Below are positions 19,779-27,061 of a stretch of DNA of 48,653 nucleotides, piece by piece. The notes below the pieces were generated by a model. That model was not told the DNA's origin. It ran no database searches and worked only from the letters and a program-made list of their open reading frames with translations. Position numbers and translations under genes: made by a program. Source of the DNA: a virus; UHGV virus genome UHGV-1372840; one strand, 5' to 3'. Every line of letters begins with the position of its first letter. Positions within the stretch are counted from its first letter, which is position 1.

Positions 19779-20075
19779 CTACATCTCCCACACTTTGCGC
19801 ACGTGGTTCGACTCGACCATGCGTGCTTTTCTGATTAATTTACGTGCCACATACATCGGTATCTGCACATCGTCAAGAAACCATTTGTCTTTCTTACTGA
19901 CCGAGTTGTACCAGCCGTAAGAGGGACGGAGTAGTTGTTTAATTTGTGCCATTGCGTTCACTCCTCGCTTTCCACTCCAACCATGCAACCTGCTGTAATC
20001 CACGCTGGTCCATTGCGGGACGATGTTTAATTTTTGGACGAAAGTTTTCTTCAAACCACTGTTTAAATTCTTCAA
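19779..20075 (-). CDS. Hypothetical protein, first gene of the leftward replication operon
   Basis: 98 aa; GAGAGG RBS before the ATG. Confidence 0.4.
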   Translation of the reverse strand: MKNLNSGLKKTFVQKLNIVPQWTSVDYSRLHGWSGKRGVNAMAQIKQLLRPSYGWYNSVSKKDKWFLDDVQIPMYVARKLIRKARMVESNHVRKVWEM

Positions 20076-20234
20076 GTTCTTTTTCTTCTTTCATTTTATT
20101 TTCCTCTCACTTATTGACGATGACGTCATTATGTCGCACCACCCACCCCGTGTCAAATTTAAAATTAGTGTTGACGAGTGCGTCATGGTGGTATAGAGTT
20201 CACCACATCGACAACAACGGAGGACAGAGAGACA
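20076..20234. promoter_or_regulatory. Divergent promoter region with two palindromic operators
   Basis: Leftward TTGACA-17-CATAAT with TGACGTCATCGTCAA (20104-20119) at its +1. Rightward TTGACGagtgCGTCAT-GGTGGTATAGAGT (20170-20198). Confidence 0.55.
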
Positions 20235-21154
20235 TGAGTAATATCACATTAACCATCCCGAACGACGACCACATTGCGCTGCGTGCGTTTGGTAAAGCAC
20301 TGGAAGAAATGGCACTTGCGCACGGTGCGCCACTACGAGTTAACCCCCACGTGGACGTGGAAAAATTGCGTGAGACAATGGGGAATGCGGAACCAACGTA
20401 TATCGTTCCTGAAGTTGACACCACTGCACAACAGGTTGAGTCACTCGGCGCAACGCACATCATTACCGAGCAGAAATTAGTTGGTGGCCCCGTACATGTG
20501 GGTGACGGTAATTTCTCACAAGGATACGTCGCCACAGTCGAGGAAATTGCTGACCCCGTTGACTCAACTGGCACACCGTGGGACGAACGTATCCACTCCA
20601 CCAGTAAGGCGCTCAATGCGGACGGTACGTGGCGTCTGCGTCGTAAGCCGAAGGATATGGATGAACTGGAATGGGTGGCACTGATTGAGTCGGTTAAGGG
20701 TGAGTTGCATACTCAAACACCGGTAATGACTGATGAAGAAGTTAAAACCCTGGAACCCGTGGAAATTGGCGGACCGACACGGGAAGAAGTCGAACCACCT
20801 GTAACACCACCGGGCGATGATTTCCACACTGACGAGCAAACCGTTGCCGGTATTCCGCCACTTCCTGTACCGCCGCCGGTAGTTGTTGCACCACCTGTAC
20901 CGGAATTTGATGACGGCGTTCCTTTCCCACCATCGGGCACTGTCTCTCCAGCGTTAGAGCGTATGGCGGACCACACTGTATGGGACTTCCCGCGCCTCAT
21001 GACCTTCCTGACCGAGCGTCACGGTAAGATTGATGTGGCAACGGTGAACACGCTGCTGGCGCAGGACGGTATGTCGTCGGTGCAGGAACTGAACGCCCAC
21101 CCGGATAAAATCGGTCCGTTCGTGGCACGTGTTAAAGCGCATTTGGGGGAGTGA
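20235..21154 (+). CDS. Hypothetical early protein with DSTGTPWDERIH motif and Pro-rich linker
   Basis: GGAGGACAGAGAGAC then ATG at 20235. The track N-terminal extension reads through the promoter region and is rejected. Confidence 0.5.
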
Positions 21155-21159
21155 GTTGT

Positions 21160-21675
21160 ATGAAGGAGAAAGCGTTAACACAAGAAACACTCAAGGCTCT
21201 TCTCCATTATGACCCCGTCACAGGGGTCTTTACTTGGTTGGTGAGTCCAAGTTTCACTGTCAAAGCTGGGGATAAGGCCGGGAATGTCACGCCTAAAGGT
21301 TACTGGCAAATCGGGATAAATAGAAAGCGGTATTTGGCACATCGCTTAGCGTGGCTCTACGTACACGGAGTTTTTCCGGAAAAAGACGTTGACCACATTA
21401 ACCGTAATCCAGCAGACAACCGGATTGTTAATTTGAGAGATGTCAGCAATCAATTTAATTTATTTAACACTTCGAAACAAAAAGATAATACCTCCGGTTA
21501 CAAAGGGGTGACTTTCATACCAAAGGTTAAAAAGTGGCAAGCCCAAATCAGAATGAATAGTAAGAAAGTGTACTTAGGTACATTTGATACACCCGAAAGA
21601 GCTGATATAGCACACAGAATTGCTGAATATTTTAGAGAGAAATATTATGACCACTCAACTACCAAAGGTGTCTGA
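21160..21675 (+). CDS. HNH homing endonuclease with AP2 DNA-binding domain
   Basis: DHINRNPADNRIVNLR HNH core plus GVTF...KKWQAQI...VYLGTFDTPERA AP2 domain. Confidence 0.7.
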   Translation: MKEKALTQETLKALLHYDPVTGVFTWLVSPSFTVKAGDKAGNVTPKGYWQIGINRKRYLAHRLAWLYVHGVFPEKDVDHINRNPADNRIVNLRDVSNQFNLFNTSKQKDNTSGYKGVTFIPKVKKWQAQIRMNSKKVYLGTFDTPERADIAHRIAEYFREKYYDHSTTKGV

Positions 21676-22774
21676 TGCTTCCATGTGGATGACCTGTAAC
21701 GGGTCATTCCGGGCGCAACAGGCTTATCCACCACTGGACGTCGAACCATCGCAGTCACGTCTTGAAGGGCGTGCCGCACACGAAGTGGCTCAGAAGTTAT
21801 TCAAAAATGAGCCATTCAGTGGCCTGGTGGGTAGTTTGTCAAAGGATGGAATTATCATCACAGACGAACTGTTTGATGCTGCTCGTGAGTATTTTAACGA
21901 GGTGTGGGGTTATTGTAACACTCACGGGCGAGTGCACGACCTTCACGTTGAGGAAGTGTGTCCTGTTCCGGGTTATGACGACTGGTACTGTATTCCCGAT
22001 GCGTGGGTGTACGTACCGGAAGGGAAGGTACTACGTGTCTGGGACGCGAAATTCGGTCACCGTATTGTTGACCCGTTTGAAAACTGGCAGTTGTTGATTG
22101 AAGCGTTCAGTATTTGCGAACAATTCCAGTCGCCACCGGGCATTATTGAACTGGTCATCGTACAGCCACGCGGATTCACCGGTGAGGGTACGGTGCGTAA
22201 ATGGGCGCTCACATACGATGAACTGTGCGCATACCGGCAGCAGGTGAACGAGACGATACTCCGCGTGCTGGATGCCACGCCGATGTGTACACCCGGACCA
22301 CATTGTCTCGACTGCAGCGCGCGTGCACACTGTGACACGCTGAAGCAACAGAGTTACGCCGCGGTGGACTACGTGACGTCACTGCAGACGCACAATTTGT
22401 CCGGACATGCCCTGGGTGTTGAGTTGAGACTCCTGCAGCGTGCACAGGAGATGATTAAAATGCGTCTCAGTGGTCTGGAGGAACAAGCACTGCATGAGAT
22501 TAAGCAGGGTCGACATGTGACATTCTACACCGCTAAAACCACATACGGTCGTAAGCGCTGGAAGAAAGATGTTCCGGTGGACCAGGTGATATTCATGGCC
22601 GAGTTGCAGGGAGTTGACGTCCGTAAGCCGCAGGAACTGGACACACCCGCACAGTGTGCGAAAAAAGGTATCGACCCGTCTGTTATTGAGCAGTACGCTG
22701 AAACACCTGTCACGGGTGTCAAGCTGGAACAGGTCGATGAACGCAGTATCCGTAGTGTATTTGAGAGGAGGTGA
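21647..22774 (+). CDS. PD-(D/E)xK exonuclease with C-terminal Cys4 cluster (Cas4/AddB-like)
   Basis: YCIPDAWVY...VWDAKFG nuclease motifs. CTPGPHCLDCSARAHC four-Cys cluster typical of FeS-containing Cas4-like recombination nucleases. Confidence 0.55.
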   Translation: MTTQLPKVSDASMWMTCNGSFRAQQAYPPLDVEPSQSRLEGRAAHEVAQKLFKNEPFSGLVGSLSKDGIIITDELFDAAREYFNEVWGYCNTHGRVHDLHVEEVCPVPGYDDWYCIPDAWVYVPEGKVLRVWDAKFGHRIVDPFENWQLLIEAFSICEQFQSPPGIIELVIVQPRGFTGEGTVRKWALTYDELCAYRQQVNETILRVLDATPMCTPGPHCLDCSARAHCDTLKQQSYAAVDYVTSLQTHNLSGHALGVELRLLQRAQEMIKMRLSGLEEQALHEIKQGRHVTFYTAKTTYGRKRWKKDVPVDQVIFMAELQGVDVRKPQELDTPAQCAKKGIDPSVIEQYAETPVTGVKLEQVDERSIRSVFERR

Positions 22775-22999: not shown

Positions 23000-23812
23000 A
23001 TGGCTCAATTTACTTTCGTTACCCCTGTTGCTCGCCTGATTCACGGTCACCCGCTGAAACAAAATGTACGCGCTGATGGAGTTACAAAACAACCGGTTCT
23101 TGGTAAAGATGGTCAGCCCGTTAAAGAGATTTACATCGGTATTGCAATTCCTAAAACCGGTGAAGCGGACTGGAAAGATACCGAATGGGGTAAACAAATC
23201 GCAATGGCGGCGCTGGACGCTGAAAACGGTTACGATGCCGCCACCACTCGCCGCCCGGATTTTTCCTGGAAAGTAATCGATGGCGATAGCGACATCCCGA
23301 ACAAAGCTGGTCACGCACCGAATGAGGACGAATATAAACGCGGTCACTGGGTCTTGCACCTGAACACCCGCATTCCGTACAACTGTTATCATGTTGGTAA
23401 ATATAATCCGCTCGATGCGATTCAGGACGTAAACGCTATTAAACTCGGCGATTACGTTCGTGTGAATATCGTGGCGAAAGGTAATAAGCCGTCCAAAACT
23501 CCGGGCGTGTATTTGAACCCGAATCTGCTCGAGCTGTCACGTGTGGGCGAAGCGATCATTCGTGAAGGTAGCGGTCCGGACGCGGCAAGCGTATTTGGCG
23601 GTGGCACACCTGCGCAGGCGGCACCAACCCCGGCCCCAGCTGCTCCGGCACCCGCAACACCTCCGCCAGCAACTGACCTGTTGGTAACACCTCCGCCGGT
23701 TGTTGAAGAGAAGTACAGTTACAACGGCGTGGTGTATACCAAAGCACAACTGCTCGGTATGCCCGGCTGGAGCGAAGAGTTAATCGCACAACACTGTCAG
23801 AAAGTAGCATAA
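23000..23812 (+). CDS. Putative ssDNA-binding protein (DUF2815/T7 gp2.5-like) with Pro/Ala-rich linker
   Basis: N-terminus FTFVTPVARLIH fits the DUF2815 opening; long PAPAAPAPATPPPA linker; placement in the replication module. Confidence 0.45.
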   Translation: MAQFTFVTPVARLIHGHPLKQNVRADGVTKQPVLGKDGQPVKEIYIGIAIPKTGEADWKDTEWGKQIAMAALDAENGYDAATTRRPDFSWKVIDGDSDIPNKAGHAPNEDEYKRGHWVLHLNTRIPYNCYHVGKYNPLDAIQDVNAIKLGDYVRVNIVAKGNKPSKTPGVYLNPNLLELSRVGEAIIREGSGPDAASVFGGGTPAQAAPTPAPAAPAPATPPPATDLLVTPPPVVEEKYSYNGVVYTKAQLLGMPGWSEELIAQHCQKVA

Positions 23813-23862
23813 CCACAACGCCCCGGTGTGAGCCGGGGTAATTTAACTGGAGAGGGTGTATC

Positions 23863-23985
23863 ATGACCGAACTCGACCCACGACTGAAAAAGATTGATGA
23901 AAAGTTAGCCGAACTGGAACGCGCTATTAAACAGGTGCAGGAGCAACGCCGGGAATACATCAACCGGAAAGGACTCAATAAATAA
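23863..23985 (+). CDS. Small hypothetical protein (40 aa)
   Basis: GGAGAGGG RBS then ATG; between a weak hairpin (23821-23838) and a terminator. Confidence 0.3.
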   Translation: MTELDPRLKKIDEKLAELERAIKQVQEQRREYINRKGLNK

Positions 23986-23992
23986 TTATCCA

Positions 23993-24016
23993 AGCCCCTT
24001 AACCGGGGCTTTTCTT
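23993..24016 (+). terminator. Rho-independent terminator or attenuator
   Basis: AGCCCC-ttaacc-GGGGCT then TTTCTT. Confidence 0.5.
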
Positions 24017-24032
24017 ACAGAGAGGAACAGAG

Positions 24033-25556
24033 ATGCACTATTTATCGAAATGCGAAGACGCAACTTGCGGTAAAACTTATCCCGCTGACCTCCACAATTG
24101 CCCTTACTGTGGGGCTGATTCAGCGTTTTCCAGCGTTGCACCACTGGACCCACGGGACTGGGGATACGATTTAGAGACATACAAGAACATCTTCACCGCC
24201 TCATTTATTCACGCTGCGACGGGTATGGAGTTAGTCTTCGAAATCAGTGACCGTAAAAACGAGCAGTCGCAATTAATCGAATTCGTGTTCAACCTGGGAC
24301 GCAGTAAGGCCCGTGGGATTGGATTTAATAACCTGGCATTCGACTATCCGGTGCTACACTACGTGGTCAATGCACCGGGTTGTACACTGGAACAGATTTA
24401 TGCGAAGGCGCAATCACAGATTAAGCCCGAAGGTCAGTGGCCAGAAATCATATGGGACCGCGACCAGATTTTCGAGCAGATTGATCTGTACAAAATAAAC
24501 CACTTCGACAATAAAGCCCGACGTACCAGCCTGAAGGCGTTAGAGGTAGGCATGCGGTCCCCCAACGTAAAAGACCTACCATTCCCGGTCGGAATGGTGT
24601 TGAACGATGCGCAGAAAGATGTCCTCATCGCATACAACAAGCACGACGTCCGCGAAACACTTAAATTCTTCGTGCGTTCACTCGACAAAATTCATTTCCG
24701 CGAGGAACTGACAAAGCAATACGGACGTAACTTTATGAACCACGCCGACACTAAAATCGGCAAAGATATATTCGTTCACGAACTGGAGAAGGCCGGGGTA
24801 GATTGCTCGGGAGTAACTATTCGTGAACGTATCGCGCTTGCGGATTGCATACCCCCTTACATCAAATTTGAACGACCGGAGTTCAATCAAATTCTGGAAC
24901 GCATTCGTGGGGTTGTACTCACGAAGAAGCAGCAGGACGAATTACTGACCACAAAAGGTGTGTTTAGTGATATGACCGTCATGGTCGATGGTGTCGAATA
25001 TTCGTTCGGGTTGGGAGGTATCCATAGTGGTATTCCGAACTACGTTGTGCATTCCGGCAACGGTAAGTTATTGAAAAATAAAGATGTTACAAGCATGTAC
25101 CCGTCCATTAGTATAAAGAACAGGTACTATCCGGAACACCTTAGTGAAACTTTTTGTGATGTATATGAACAACTGTTCATTCGTCGCCGTGATGCTAAGC
25201 GAGCGGGAGATAAAACAGTTGATGCCGCATTGAAACTCGCCCTCAACGGCACCTTCGGAAACATGGGGAGTAAATTCAGCCCATTCTGCGACCACAAGTG
25301 TCTTCTGAGTATCACTATTACGGGACAACTTTGTTTGGCAATGTTGATTGATAGATTGATAACGCGAGTTCCAGACATGATTATTCCGCAATCGAATACT
25401 GACGGGGCTGTCATGTACTACCCCGAACAATATGATTCGTTAGTCGAATCTATTTGTGCGGAATGGGAGAAAGACACAATGTTGGGACTTGAGACGGACG
25501 AAGTAAAATCTCTTTATCAGCGTGATGTGAACAATTACATAATGACCATTGGTTGA
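24033..25556 (+). CDS. Family B DNA polymerase, N-terminal fragment (zinc finger, 3'-5' exonuclease, palm)
   Basis: Exo I DLET, Exo II FNNLAFDYP, Exo III YNKHD. Pol motif A DVTSMYPSI, motif B KLALNGTFG, motif C NTDG. Stops about 50 aa after motif C. Confidence 0.75.
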   Translation: MHYLSKCEDATCGKTYPADLHNCPYCGADSAFSSVAPLDPRDWGYDLETYKNIFTASFIHAATGMELVFEISDRKNEQSQLIEFVFNLGRSKARGIGFNNLAFDYPVLHYVVNAPGCTLEQIYAKAQSQIKPEGQWPEIIWDRDQIFEQIDLYKINHFDNKARRTSLKALEVGMRSPNVKDLPFPVGMVLNDAQKDVLIAYNKHDVRETLKFFVRSLDKIHFREELTKQYGRNFMNHADTKIGKDIFVHELEKAGVDCSGVTIRERIALADCIPPYIKFERPEFNQILERIRGVVLTKKQQDELLTTKGVFSDMTVMVDGVEYSFGLGGIHSGIPNYVVHSGNGKLLKNKDVTSMYPSISIKNRYYPEHLSETFCDVYEQLFIRRRDAKRAGDKTVDAALKLALNGTFGNMGSKFSPFCDHKCLLSITITGQLCLAMLIDRLITRVPDMIIPQSNTDGAVMYYPEQYDSLVESICAEWEKDTMLGLETDEVKSLYQRDVNNYIMTIG

Positions 25557-25582
25557 CATCGGGCAAAAGAAAATTTAGGATG
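25554..25582 (+). promoter_or_regulatory. Promoter for the inserted HNH gene
   Basis: TTGACA, 17 nt, TAGGAT, overlapping the end of the polymerase fragment. Confidence 0.4.
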
Positions 25583-25608
25583 GTATAAACAAATCGCAAC
25601 GGTATGAG

Positions 25609-26157
25609 ATGATGATGTGGAAATTGAAATGCAGAGAAGAAATGTCTCTGGAGTTATTAAAAGAACATTTCACTTATAATCCCACGACTGGGGAATTCGC
25701 AAGAATAAAGAGATACGATAGTTATGGTAAACCCAAATCAATATATTCGCCAATAAGGGACTGTAATAATAGGGGCTATTACTGGGCGAATTGTTTTGGG
25801 TTGATGTTTCTCGTACATCGCCTCGTGTGGTTATATATGACGGGTGAACATCCGAATGGTGAAATTGACCATATCAATGGTAATCGAAAGGATAACCGCT
25901 GGGAAAATTTACGTCTTGTTACGGCTTTTGAGAATGCTAGAAATCAGGGTGAACGCAAAGATAACACCTCCGGGTGCAGAGGCGTTACAAGAAATGGTGC
26001 GGGATGGTTGGTACGTATATCACATGAAGGGGTTCGTTATCACTTGGGCACATTCAGAGATAAGAATGAGGCAATCGCCGTTCGCAAGCAAGCTGAGCGC
26101 GATTTAAATTATCACCCCAATCACGCAAAGCGGGAGTCATGGAAATATGAAAATTAA
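25609..26157 (+). CDS. HNH-AP2 homing endonuclease inserted in the DNA polymerase gene
   Basis: DHINGNRKDNRWENLR HNH core plus GVTRNGAGWLVRISHEGVRYHLGTFRDKNEA AP2 domain. Confidence 0.7.
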   Translation: MMMWKLKCREEMSLELLKEHFTYNPTTGEFARIKRYDSYGKPKSIYSPIRDCNNRGYYWANCFGLMFLVHRLVWLYMTGEHPNGEIDHINGNRKDNRWENLRLVTAFENARNQGERKDNTSGCRGVTRNGAGWLVRISHEGVRYHLGTFRDKNEAIAVRKQAERDLNYHPNHAKRESWKYEN

Positions 26158-26731
26158 AAGAAAAGGGTGTTACGAGTACAAATACCAGTGGCATCAAGAC
26201 CCATCGGCGATGATTGTTGCCCGCGCAGCCGAAGCCGCCCTCGTACACGGTGAGGACATCCGCACGTTCATCACGCGGCACCGTGACCCGTTTGACTTTA
26301 TGCTGCGAGCAAAAGTGCCTCGTTCGGCACGTCTGGTGATGCGTTGGCCTGAGTGGGGCGCTGAACAGGAGATGCAGAATACCACACGTGTGTTTATCTC
26401 GCGTAATGGTGGGTCACTGGTTAAGCTGTTACCACCAACCGGTACACCAGGTACATGGAAGCGCAAGAATGGTGTCAAGGACGATGTGTACAATGCGGTA
26501 ATGCGTGAGATTACAGGGCAACCTGGAGACCTCGACAGCATTGGTACACCGTGGGATGAGCGTATCCACACGAAGAGTCGCAGTAAGCACGATGCAGTGC
26601 GCGAAACAAGTATGTGTGCAGGATGGAAGGTGACAGAGTGTGCAGACGCTAAGGATTTCGACTGGGGCAGTCTGGACTACGAATATTATGTGAAAGAAGT
26701 GGAAAAGTTAGTTTTACCGTTGTTGAGGTGA
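26147..26731 (+). CDS. Family B DNA polymerase, C-terminal (thumb) fragment
   Basis: Begins KIKRKGCYEYK, which resembles the post-motif-C KKRY region. Own GGAG RBS; start overlaps the HNH stop. Confidence 0.5.
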   Translation: MKIKRKGCYEYKYQWHQDPSAMIVARAAEAALVHGEDIRTFITRHRDPFDFMLRAKVPRSARLVMRWPEWGAEQEMQNTTRVFISRNGGSLVKLLPPTGTPGTWKRKNGVKDDVYNAVMREITGQPGDLDSIGTPWDERIHTKSRSKHDAVRETSMCAGWKVTECADAKDFDWGSLDYEYYVKEVEKLVLPLLR

Positions 26732-26746
26732 GAAAGTACCGGCGCA

Positions 26747-27061
26747 TCACTGTGCCGGTTTGTTCATCTTTTGACGCATTTCAGCAAGTTCAATTTCCGC
26801 CTTTTCGCGTTCGATTCGCCTAATAATTTCCTTCTCCTTACGCTCGGCGGACTCATTACGAATTCGTTGTATGTGACCACAAATCATGACAACCGTCAGT
26901 ATAATACCACACAAGGTGGCGAAGATACCGACGGTTTCCGGGGTAATGCCGTATTTAGTCATCAGTCCCGTTATCGTCGTCCCGCTCGCCACTACCGTTC
27001 CGACTTGTGTGTTTCCAGTAAAGCTCATAGCGTTTTCTCGCTTCAATGTACCACTCGACAA
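26747..27061 (-). CDS. Small membrane protein with highly charged C-terminus (holin-like candidate)
   Basis: TM segment VGIFATLCGIILTVVMICGHI then RIRNESAERKEKEIIRRIEREKAEIELAEMRQK. Confidence 0.35.
   Translation of the reverse strand: MSSGTLKRENAMSFTGNTQVGTVVASGTTITGLMTKYGITPETVGIFATLCGIILTVVMICGHIQRIRNESAERKEKEIIRRIEREKAEIELAEMRQKMNKPAQ

Follow-up and report, generated by a model that had tools for sequence, protein, structure and literature searches.

The 48,653-nt stretch of viral DNA described here, UHGV virus genome UHGV-1372840 (called the window throughout), encodes its DNA polymerase in two pieces. A family B DNA polymerase (PolB) gene is divided into an upstream part, polN, and a downstream part, polC, and a gene for an HNH-type homing endonuclease is located between them. 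We consider it very probable that a free-standing homing endonuclease resides within the only DNA polymerase gene of this phage, and that the enzyme is a two-subunit PolB whose parts are translated separately and without splicing. The sequences themselves show the layout of the locus, the collinearity of the fragments, the lack of intron or intein features, a sporadic distribution, mosaic flanks, and purifying selection; we infer the assembly of the subunits, their polymerase activity, and the activity and target of the endonuclease.

The window phage is a Klebsiella phage of Jedunavirus, a genus of JD001-like myoviruses with genomes of ~48 kb. Region 23800-26900 is 98.5-98.7% identical to the Klebsiella phages RCIP0091, RCIP0030, and vB_KpnM_KpVB3, and 73 phage records match this region, nearly all of them from Jedunavirus. 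A first-pass annotation of the window had delimited three open reading frames (ORFs) in this region, and all of their coordinates were verified (Table 1). It had also described the first ORF as carrying exonuclease motifs Exo I-III and polymerase motifs A, B, and C and as stopping about 50 amino acids past motif C. The motifs are indeed present, and the stop lies 49 amino acids past motif C. Similarly, the downstream ORF was correctly described as having its own ribosome-binding site and a start that overlaps the end of the HNH ORF. Its ATG is 11 nt inside the HNH ORF and is preceded by GGGAG, and the three ORFs occupy three different frames.

By sequence and predicted fold, the enzyme is a family B polymerase. 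The exonuclease pattern of this family is satisfied by polN, in which Exo I (DxE) reads YDLETY (residues 45-50), Exo II (Nx2-3FD) reads FNNLAFDYPVL (98-108), and Exo III (Yx3D) reads YNKHDVRE (201-208). Counterparts of the family B patterns DxxSLYPS, KxxxNSxYG, and DTD are present as motifs A (DVTSMYPS, 351-358), B (KLALNGTFG, 401-409), and C (QSNTDG, 453-458), and motifs B and C align with those of Sulfolobus PolB1 (1s5j) and Thermococcus PolB (8s84). In an alignment of 36 homologues, the exonuclease residues D46, E48, N99, D104, Y201, and D205 are invariant, as are the residues of motifs A, B, and C. Profile searches place polN on positions 24-505 of the 663-position DNA polymerase family phrog_1252 (E = 4.4e-163), and polC on positions 512-650 of the same profile as well as on phrog_15833 (6.9e-91).

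The Pfam match of polN to DNA_pol_B_exo2 is weak and sub-threshold (6.6e-4), no Pfam PolB model scores above threshold for either fragment, and polC is without any Pfam match. Consequently, the family assignment rests on PHROGs, on a sequence search of the PDB, and on a fold search. With phmmer, only family B enzymes were recovered from the PDB, including Sulfolobus PolB1 (1s5j, 7.8e-5) and Thermococcus polymerases. Structures were modeled for one uninterrupted homologue and for polC alone. The AlphaFold model of the homologue has a predicted local distance difference test (pLDDT) score of 87.3, and family B polymerases make up the whole of its top 50 Foldseek matches in the PDB (best E 4.5e-14, probability 1.00, template modeling score 0.44-0.50). 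The leading matches are the archaeal 9N, KOD, and Tgo polymerases (E ~5e-14), to which the relation is distant at 12-14% identity. Thus, the PDB sequence matches, confined to PolB, and the Foldseek probability uphold the family B assignment made in the first-pass annotation.

Within polN, motifs A and C belong to the palm and motif B to the fingers; the fragment also holds a zinc ribbon, the exonuclease domain, and the strand equivalent to the KxY motif. The cysteines of the ribbon are invariant or nearly so in the 36-sequence alignment, and the lineage, phrog_1252, is a phage PolB family that has diverged and carries this ribbon at its N-terminus. Such a four-cysteine, zinc-ribbon-like start (C7, C12, C23, C26) is unusual for family B polymerases. 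Some homologues have been named “Nop10” by JGI, probably due to this ribbon.

Evidence that polN and polC are parts of one gene comes from sister genes that are uninterrupted. The polymerases of Escherichia phage ZCEC13 (704 amino acids) and Klebsiella phage MEW1 (724 amino acids) are covered end to end by polN plus polC, and the coverage is contiguous over the junction with a loss of ~2 residues, which is the check that the first-pass annotation had called for. Where uninterrupted genes read NNYIQVGTDGKIKRKG (...RDVNNYIQVGTDGKIKRKGAYEY... in ZCEC13; ...AACTATATTCAGGTTGGTACGGACGGTAAAATCAAGCG... in ZCEC13/MEW1), the window has NNYIMTIG and a stop codon, then MKIKRKG at the start of polC; with more context, the two ends are ...RDVNNYIMTIG and MKIKRKGCYEY.... 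At the DNA level, the tail of polN still resembles the ancestral turn (ATTGGTTGAC versus GTTGGTACGGAC).

One detail of the earlier description has to be corrected. It had identified KIKRKG near the start of polC as a KKRY-like motif. However, alignments to PDB structures place the KK(x)Y motif (KKNY in Sulfolobus PolB1, KKKY in Thermococcus PolB) opposite VNNY at the end of polN. The Tyr of this KxY equivalent is invariant, whereas the Lys is replaced by Asn, and GKIKRKG aligns with the strand that comes after KxY (KKKYAVIDEEGKITTRGLE in KOD). In the AlphaFold model of the uninterrupted homologue, strands 500-505 and 510-513 form a hairpin with its turn at 506-509. On this model, the break falls in the β-hairpin turn just past the KxY-equivalent motif, between palm and thumb. 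When polC is modeled alone, residues 20-194 are predicted with pLDDT >90 and residues 1-13 with <50, whereas in the full-length model the stretch equivalent to polC residues 1-13 reaches a block-mean pLDDT of 87-93 and takes in strand 510-513. This difference fits a predicted strand complementation, in which the head of polC would dock on the last strand of PolN.

The ORF between the two fragments was proposed to be a complete, free-standing HNH endonuclease gene that splits the polymerase, and this reading held. It has an ORF of its own, its product matches Pfam HNH_3 (1.5e-18, residues 68-111) and phrog_99 (6.6e-54), and no intron model matches the locus. I-HmuI is the best PDB match (1u3e, 8e-5), and EIDHINGNRKDNRWENLRLVTAFEN of the HNH protein aligns with the catalytic segment of I-HmuI. 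A conserved N-terminus, MMWK, suggests that translation starts at 25612. The GC content of the gene is 0.42, compared with 0.46-0.52 for its flanks. The AP2 part of the more specific label HNH-AP2 was not confirmed. A search of the window HNH protein gave no match to Pfam AP2 at any E<=10, and a connection to AP2 exists only indirectly, via the HNH protein found at the same site in phage BUCT_49532. That protein carries Pfam AP2 (5.7e-11) and is 33% identical to the HNH protein of the window over 159 amino acids; the C-termini of the two align weakly (E 0.001).

Table 1. Features of the polN-HNH-polC region, in window coordinates
Feature	Position	Strand	Remarks
polN	24033..25556	+	507 amino acids, frame 0; N-terminal fragment of family B DNA polymerase; from ORF, phrog_1252, and collinearity
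Zinc-ribbon-like four-cysteine segment (C7, C12, C23, C26)	24051..24113	+	N-terminus of polN; from motif and alignment
Exonuclease motifs	24165..24656	+	Exo I 24165-24182; Exo II 24324-24356; Exo III 24633-24656
Polymerase motifs	25083..25406	+	A 25083-25106; B 25233-25259; C 25389-25406
Last polN strand, RDVNNYIMTIG	25521..25553	+	NNY is the KxY equivalent; MTIG in place of ancestral QVGTDG hairpin turn
σ70-like promoter match, TTGACA-17-TAGGAT	25553..25581	+	consensus scan; -35 overlaps polN stop codon
Spacer between polN and HNH gene	25557-25608		52 nt, non-coding
HNH homing endonuclease gene, I-HmuI-like	25609..26157	+	182 amino acids, frame 1; TAA at 26155-26157
Shine-Dalgarno of polC, GGGAG	26132..26136	+	within 3' end of HNH ORF, 10 nt 5' of polC ATG
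polC	26147..26731	+	194 amino acids, frame 2; putative docking strand (KIKRKG) and thumb domain
Terminator-like hairpin	26738..26759	+	directly 3' of polC; ends the polN-HNH-polC unit

The same site is occupied in related phages by unrelated endonuclease genes, which comprise two HNH lineages, T5orf172, and GIY-YIG. Inserts of the T5orf172/MUG113 type, with one to four treble-clef zinc-finger repeats, are present in JD001, BUCT791, KpV79, FZ14, KLPPOU148, RCIP0093, and RCIP0033. KpTRp1 has a classical GIY-YIG insert, and BUCT_49532 carries the second HNH-AP2 lineage, only 33% identical to that of the window. In the seven T5orf172 phages and BUCT_49532, polN is exactly 1524 nt long, as in the window, and the insert ORF overlaps both the polN stop (as ATGA) and, by 10-14 nt, the polC start. 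These cassettes leave no room for a spacer, and the ATGA overlap couples their translation to that of polN. KpTRp1 is an exception, as its polN of 1521 nt is split at the same site but is separated from the GIY-YIG ORF by a 40-nt gap. Every insert type provides the stop codon that closes polN. In all five cassette types examined, a Shine-Dalgarno sequence lies 6-10 nt before the ATG or GTG of polC, and the polC start has the consensus M-(S)-K-[IV]-K-R-K-G over cassette types.

Split and uninterrupted genes are found side by side within the genus. Of 48 distinct Klebsiella Jedunavirus genomes, ~22 are split at the codon position seen in the window and ~26 are uninterrupted. The distance from the last polN codon to the second polC codon is ~489, 502, 596-599, 696, 714, 813-831, 885, or 1147 nt in split genomes and 18 nt in uninterrupted ones; the cassette type in some split genomes was inferred from gap size only. 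The split is also polymorphic in Yokohamavirus, where the gene is split in Edwardsiella phage PVN06 and intact in PEi21 and MSW-3. The HNH lineage of the window recurs at the same site in PVN06 (68% amino acid identity) and in the metagenomic contig L015 (77%). The flanks of the site are mosaic. Over the 600 nt 5' of the junction, the window, JD001, and BUCT_49532 are 96-100% identical despite their different endonucleases, compared with 53-76% identity to ZCEC13. In the downstream flank, the window pairs with FZ14, KpV79, and RCIP0033 (91-96%), while JD001 falls to 67-69%. Patchy occurrence at one site in close relatives and a change of partners at the junction are both signs of homing. A 503-residue protein, P0060, was initially a candidate for a polN without a polC, but it derives from an uninterrupted gene broken off by the start of its contig.

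Several of the T5orf172 inserts are notable in their own right. For JD001, RefSeq annotates only a 63-amino-acid ORF in a stretch (locus L003, 3081-3911; NC_020204.1 38766-39596) that encodes an intact T5orf172-type endonuclease of 276 amino acids, 99% identical to a BUCT791 protein annotated as “HNH endonuclease”. The inserts of FZ14, KLPPOU148, RCIP0033, and RCIP0093 (loci L005, L009, L011, and L012) differ in repeat number. The repeat is a treble-clef zinc finger (DUF4379) of ~63 amino acids that is present in one to three or four copies, and the T5orf172 gene of RCIP0033 is interrupted where two repeats meet, so that it reads as two overlapping ORFs.

The explanation that best accommodates these observations begins with an HNH gene lodged in the hairpin turn of the polymerase gene, between the KxY-equivalent palm strand and the strand running on into the thumb. 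The cassette ends the upstream frame, leaving a PolN of 507 amino acids, and carries a promoter-like site and a start of its own, and its last codons hold the Shine-Dalgarno sequence and ATG that start the 194-residue PolC. There would be neither RNA nor protein splicing. Instead, PolN and PolC would be translated separately, probably from one transcript, with polC probably coupled translationally to the endonuclease ORF. The two proteins are predicted to associate noncovalently, such that PolC contributes its N-terminal strand to pair with the final strand of PolN, the hairpin is rebuilt, and the thumb packs on the palm to give a two-subunit polymerase. The endonuclease would spread by cutting or nicking alleles without the cassette during co-infection. 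It would then be copied in by recombinational repair, and homing would drag flanking polymerase sequence along.

Some aspects of expression can be read from the local sequence. The first-pass annotation gave the HNH gene its own promoter, and part of the evidence agrees. TTGACA-17-TAGGAT is the best σ70-like match in 23700-27000 (10/12) and is followed by TGgTATAAA at 25580-25589. Moreover, L015 has TTGACG-16-TAAAAT, with TG before the -10 element, at the same relative position despite a diverged spacer. For the HNH lineage of the window, an own promoter is plausible but unproven. No terminator-like site was found on the + strand between polN, the HNH gene, and polC. A GC-rich hairpin followed by a T-run (AAGCCCCTTAACCGGGGCTTTTCTT) is located at 23986-24032, directly 5' of the polN ribosome-binding site. 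Its equivalent in KpV79 is annotated as a rho-independent terminator, but the hairpin is not among the sites listed by the terminator scan of the window. Due to its position upstream of polN, transcription of the polymerase may depend on read-through past this hairpin.

Both fragments are under purifying selection, as judged from alignments. Among seven split alleles, the ratio of nonsynonymous to synonymous substitution rates (dN/dS) is 0.04-0.22 for polN and 0.02-0.19 for polC, and no split genome examined has a damaged copy of either fragment. A few considerations pull in the opposite direction and reduce our confidence in the explanation given above. Because alleles recombine, part of the purifying-selection signal could predate the split. 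The putative promoter is only a consensus match and has no counterpart in PVN06, the Shine-Dalgarno sequence of the endonuclease itself is weak in the window, and the covariance models of Rfam can miss an intron core that is broken by a large ORF.

A rival account leaves the mechanism unchanged but alters its history. Rather than splitting the gene itself, the HNH gene could have moved into a gene that was already split, or have replaced another endonuclease, with the gap serving as a safe landing site. JD001 (T5orf172) and BUCT_49532 (HNH-AP2) have one and the same polN tail (ATGGTAATAGAATGA) and are 96-100% identical upstream, yet their endonucleases are unrelated, which means that cassette replacement in an already split gene must occur. 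The same ambiguity was raised for gene 43 of phages 25 and 44RR (PMC2988022). Against this history, the lineage of the window has its own tail (MTIG before the stop; MTVD in L015), its own spacer, and its own candidate promoter. The likeness of the tail to the ancestral sequence would fit direct entry into a gene that was still whole, and the same HNH lineage occupies the same site in PVN06, a phage of another genus. We regard the already-split history as a serious contender, although on balance it is not the one we favor.

A broader interpretation can be offered only tentatively, and we doubt it rather more than we believe it. The hairpin turn past the KxY equivalent could be a swap hot-spot, in which unrelated endonucleases act as self-sufficient, mutually replacing, gene-splitting cassettes and leave an obligate PolN/PolC heterodimer that depends on cassette-derived tails. 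Each cassette would then bring a stop codon, sometimes a promoter, and the Shine-Dalgarno sequence and start codon for polC, and the cassette-derived tails would form an intermolecular β-hairpin. It might even be that the split, occupied state is itself selected, as it protects the allele from cleavage and damages the polymerase gene of co-infecting relatives.

Variation in the neighborhood of the site is uneven. The palm/fingers part of polN (~25000-25550, codons ~325-507) exists as several divergent allele classes with 43-76% nucleotide identity, in phages whose polymerase is otherwise ~85-100% identical. The divergence is concentrated 5' of the endonuclease site, a pattern that repeated co-conversion or escape from cleavage would be expected to leave.

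A less charitable reading is that the gene is dead or dying, such that the fragments do not form a working enzyme and replication relies on host polymerases or on polN alone. The weak exonuclease-domain match that is all Pfam recognizes might be taken as a sign of decay. However, every split genome examined keeps the two ORFs intact, dN/dS is 0.02-0.22 overall, the catalytic residues are invariant, and each cassette type creates the start signals of polC anew. The annotation of JD001 lists no further DNA polymerase, and the split-gene phages are productive lytic isolates, of which FZ14 reaches 1e8-4e9 plaque-forming units per ml (PMC7789013). A nonfunctional polymerase is accordingly quite improbable.

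Splicing of any kind is very unlikely. Phage DNA polymerase genes often hold group I introns with HNH genes, for example the SPO1 intron that encodes I-HmuI, the best PDB match here, and Pf-WMP3 offers another intron/HNH polymerase example (PMC3428280). By this precedent, a group I (or II) intron could carry the HNH gene, splicing would restore a single polymerase mRNA, and the separate ORFs would be an illusion of annotation. Yet an Rfam scan of 25300-26400 at E<=10 returned nothing relevant, including no match to the intron model RF00028; at the gathering threshold, Rfam matched nothing in the whole window, and no intron was found in seven related loci. The only non-coding DNA is the 52-nt spacer, as the first-pass annotation had argued when it judged this too little for a group I intron, and as RNA this spacer is predicted to be no more structured than shuffled sequences (z = 0.29). 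The 3' end of the insert codes for both the HNH protein and polC.

The weightiest argument against splicing comes from comparison with related phages. Even if an intron core had been missed, this would not account for the relatives with no non-coding DNA at all, namely JD001, BUCT791, KpV79, FZ14, KLPPOU148, RCIP0093, RCIP0033, and BUCT_49532. In these eight phages, the insert ORF overlaps both polymerase ORFs, and the inserts among relatives are unrelated and have no common sequence able to form a core. Moreover, polC receives its Shine-Dalgarno sequence and start codon from every cassette type, signals that would be superfluous in a spliced gene and are needed only if polC is translated on its own. 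The chance that an intron explains this locus is thus very small indeed, and the earlier preference for two polypeptides over a spliced product is strengthened by the zero-spacer relatives and by the polC start signals of five cassette types.

Although split inteins beside endonuclease genes are known from fractured replication genes (PMC2677866), protein trans-splicing is hardly conceivable here, because 507 + 194 = 701 amino acids, compared with 704 in the uninterrupted protein, leave no extra residues for intein halves, the junction lacks a Cys, Ser, or Thr nucleophile context, polN is closed by a stop codon, and the differing frames are not those of an in-frame insertion. Translational bypass or frameshifting was ruled out by the 596 nt, with a full conserved ORF, that separate the two frames. 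A sequencing artefact was likewise ruled out, as the same structure is present in >20 independent isolates.

Genes in pieces created by free-standing endonucleases are already known, and in such precedents the fragments of PolB and of NrdA have been found to co-purify in active form (PMC2988022, PMC3061061, PMC3045599). The closest parallel is gene 43 of T4-related phages. As reported for the Aeromonas and Acinetobacter phages 25, 44RR, 31, 65, and 133 (Petrov et al. 2006, 2010, as described in PMC2988022 and PMC3061061), this gene is split into 43A and 43B. For phage 25, the account in PMC2988022 describes a seg-type endonuclease gene in the 43A/43B gap and two products, gp43A and gp43B, that co-purify and polymerize. 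As in the window, a phage family B replicative polymerase is encoded by two adjacent cistrons, with a free-standing endonuclease between them in at least one phage. However, gene 43 is split in the fingertip of the fingers domain (PMC3061061), whereas the split in the window is in the hairpin past the KxY equivalent. Furthermore, at least four endonuclease lineages occupy the single Jedunavirus site, and the polymerases themselves are only distantly related.

In Aeromonas phage Aeh1, nrdA is interrupted by mobE, an HNH gene of the free-standing kind (Friedrich et al. 2007; Crona et al. 2011, PMC3045599), and the tails that mobE insertion created on NrdA-a and on NrdA-b are required for assembly (PMC3045599). 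In both systems, a free-standing HNH gene sits in a conserved, active-site-proximal part of an essential gene of DNA metabolism, and two ORFs result with short new tails at the break, whose products reassemble in Aeh1 and are predicted to do so in the window. The polymerase locus shares with Aeh1-type genes in pieces a contiguous orthologue in relatives, collinear fragments with their own translation signals, and purifying selection on both fragments. The Aeh1 gene differs in that it encodes a ribonucleotide reductase and in that its tails have been shown to matter for assembly. The window has a 4-residue tail and a 1-2 residue head, whose role in assembly is putative. Similarly, in the T4 topoisomerase genes 39/60 with mobA, a free-standing HNH-family gene separates parts of an enzyme that are single in relatives. 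However, that enzyme is a different one and its split is fixed in the lineage, whereas the Jedunavirus split is polymorphic within the genus.

Polymerases divided at other positions are informative as well. In Methanothermobacter thermautotrophicus, PolB1 and PolB2 form a soluble, active 1:1 dimer when co-expressed (Kelman et al. 1999, as cited in PMC3061061), and an engineered split Pfu polymerase also gives an active 1:1 dimer on co-expression (PMC3061061). The Methanothermobacter enzyme resembles that of the window in having a large N-terminal and a small C-terminal fragment that are split in the palm region past motif C. Unlike the window, its genes are 85 kb apart without an endonuclease, and its break is ~83 residues past Pfu residue 467, upstream of KxY, whereas that of the window is just downstream. 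RM378 PolB is split elsewhere, at the boundary between the N-terminal and palm regions (PMC3061061). The endonucleases I-HmuI and I-HmuII (SPO1/SP82) also reside inside phage DNA polymerase genes, and I-HmuI is the closest solved structure. In that case, however, the HNH gene belongs to a group I intron, the polymerase is of family A, and splicing of the mRNA occurs, whereas the window has no intron and its gene stays split.

The new elements are the phage group, the polymerase lineage, the place at which the gene is split, and how many endonuclease families meet at one turn. In the literature on Jedunavirus, JD001, KpV79, and FZ14, we found no description of a split polymerase, while GenBank records of relatives list “DNA polymerase” twice with an endonuclease between. 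Essential genes that are broken by free-standing homing endonucleases yet remain functional are rare, and the few cases studied (T4-like gp43A/B, Aeh1 NrdA, and T4 gp39/60) underlie ideas on how selfish DNA can break up a gene and leave its host alive. Jedunaviruses offer a natural series of split and intact alleles in Klebsiella phages that grow easily and are otherwise ~90% identical. One β-turn harbors at least four endonuclease lineages, and the junction is structurally simple, with one hairpin strand per subunit. This series makes it possible to test how a split polymerase assembles, how endonucleases vie for a single site, and in what way a catalytic domain is reshaped by homing. The interest of the system is moderate and lies in its tractability rather than in surprise. 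A practical consequence concerns these therapeutic-candidate phages, in which automatic annotation often mislabels the three genes, for instance as “hypothetical protein”, as a shortened ORF in JD001, or as “type 2 secretion system protein” in JustaPhage and JYSS3.

Two neighboring features also deserve mention. A second free-standing ORF of the HNH-AP2 type is present at 21151-21675 (+) of the window and encodes 174 amino acids. Its product is 50% identical to the polymerase-site HNH protein of BUCT_49532 and 34% identical to that of the window. It is wedged between, and overlaps, ORF 19946-21154 and an exonuclease gene at 21620-22774, and JD001 has no gene at this position. Downstream, in many relatives a DUF2493 gene of 342 nt overlaps the end of the polymerase gene (from comparison of loci L001, L002, L005, L006, and L010). 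The window (26732 onward), KpVB3, and KpV79 are without this gene, and their polC ends 3 amino acids earlier (...PLLR versus ...PLLGVTK).

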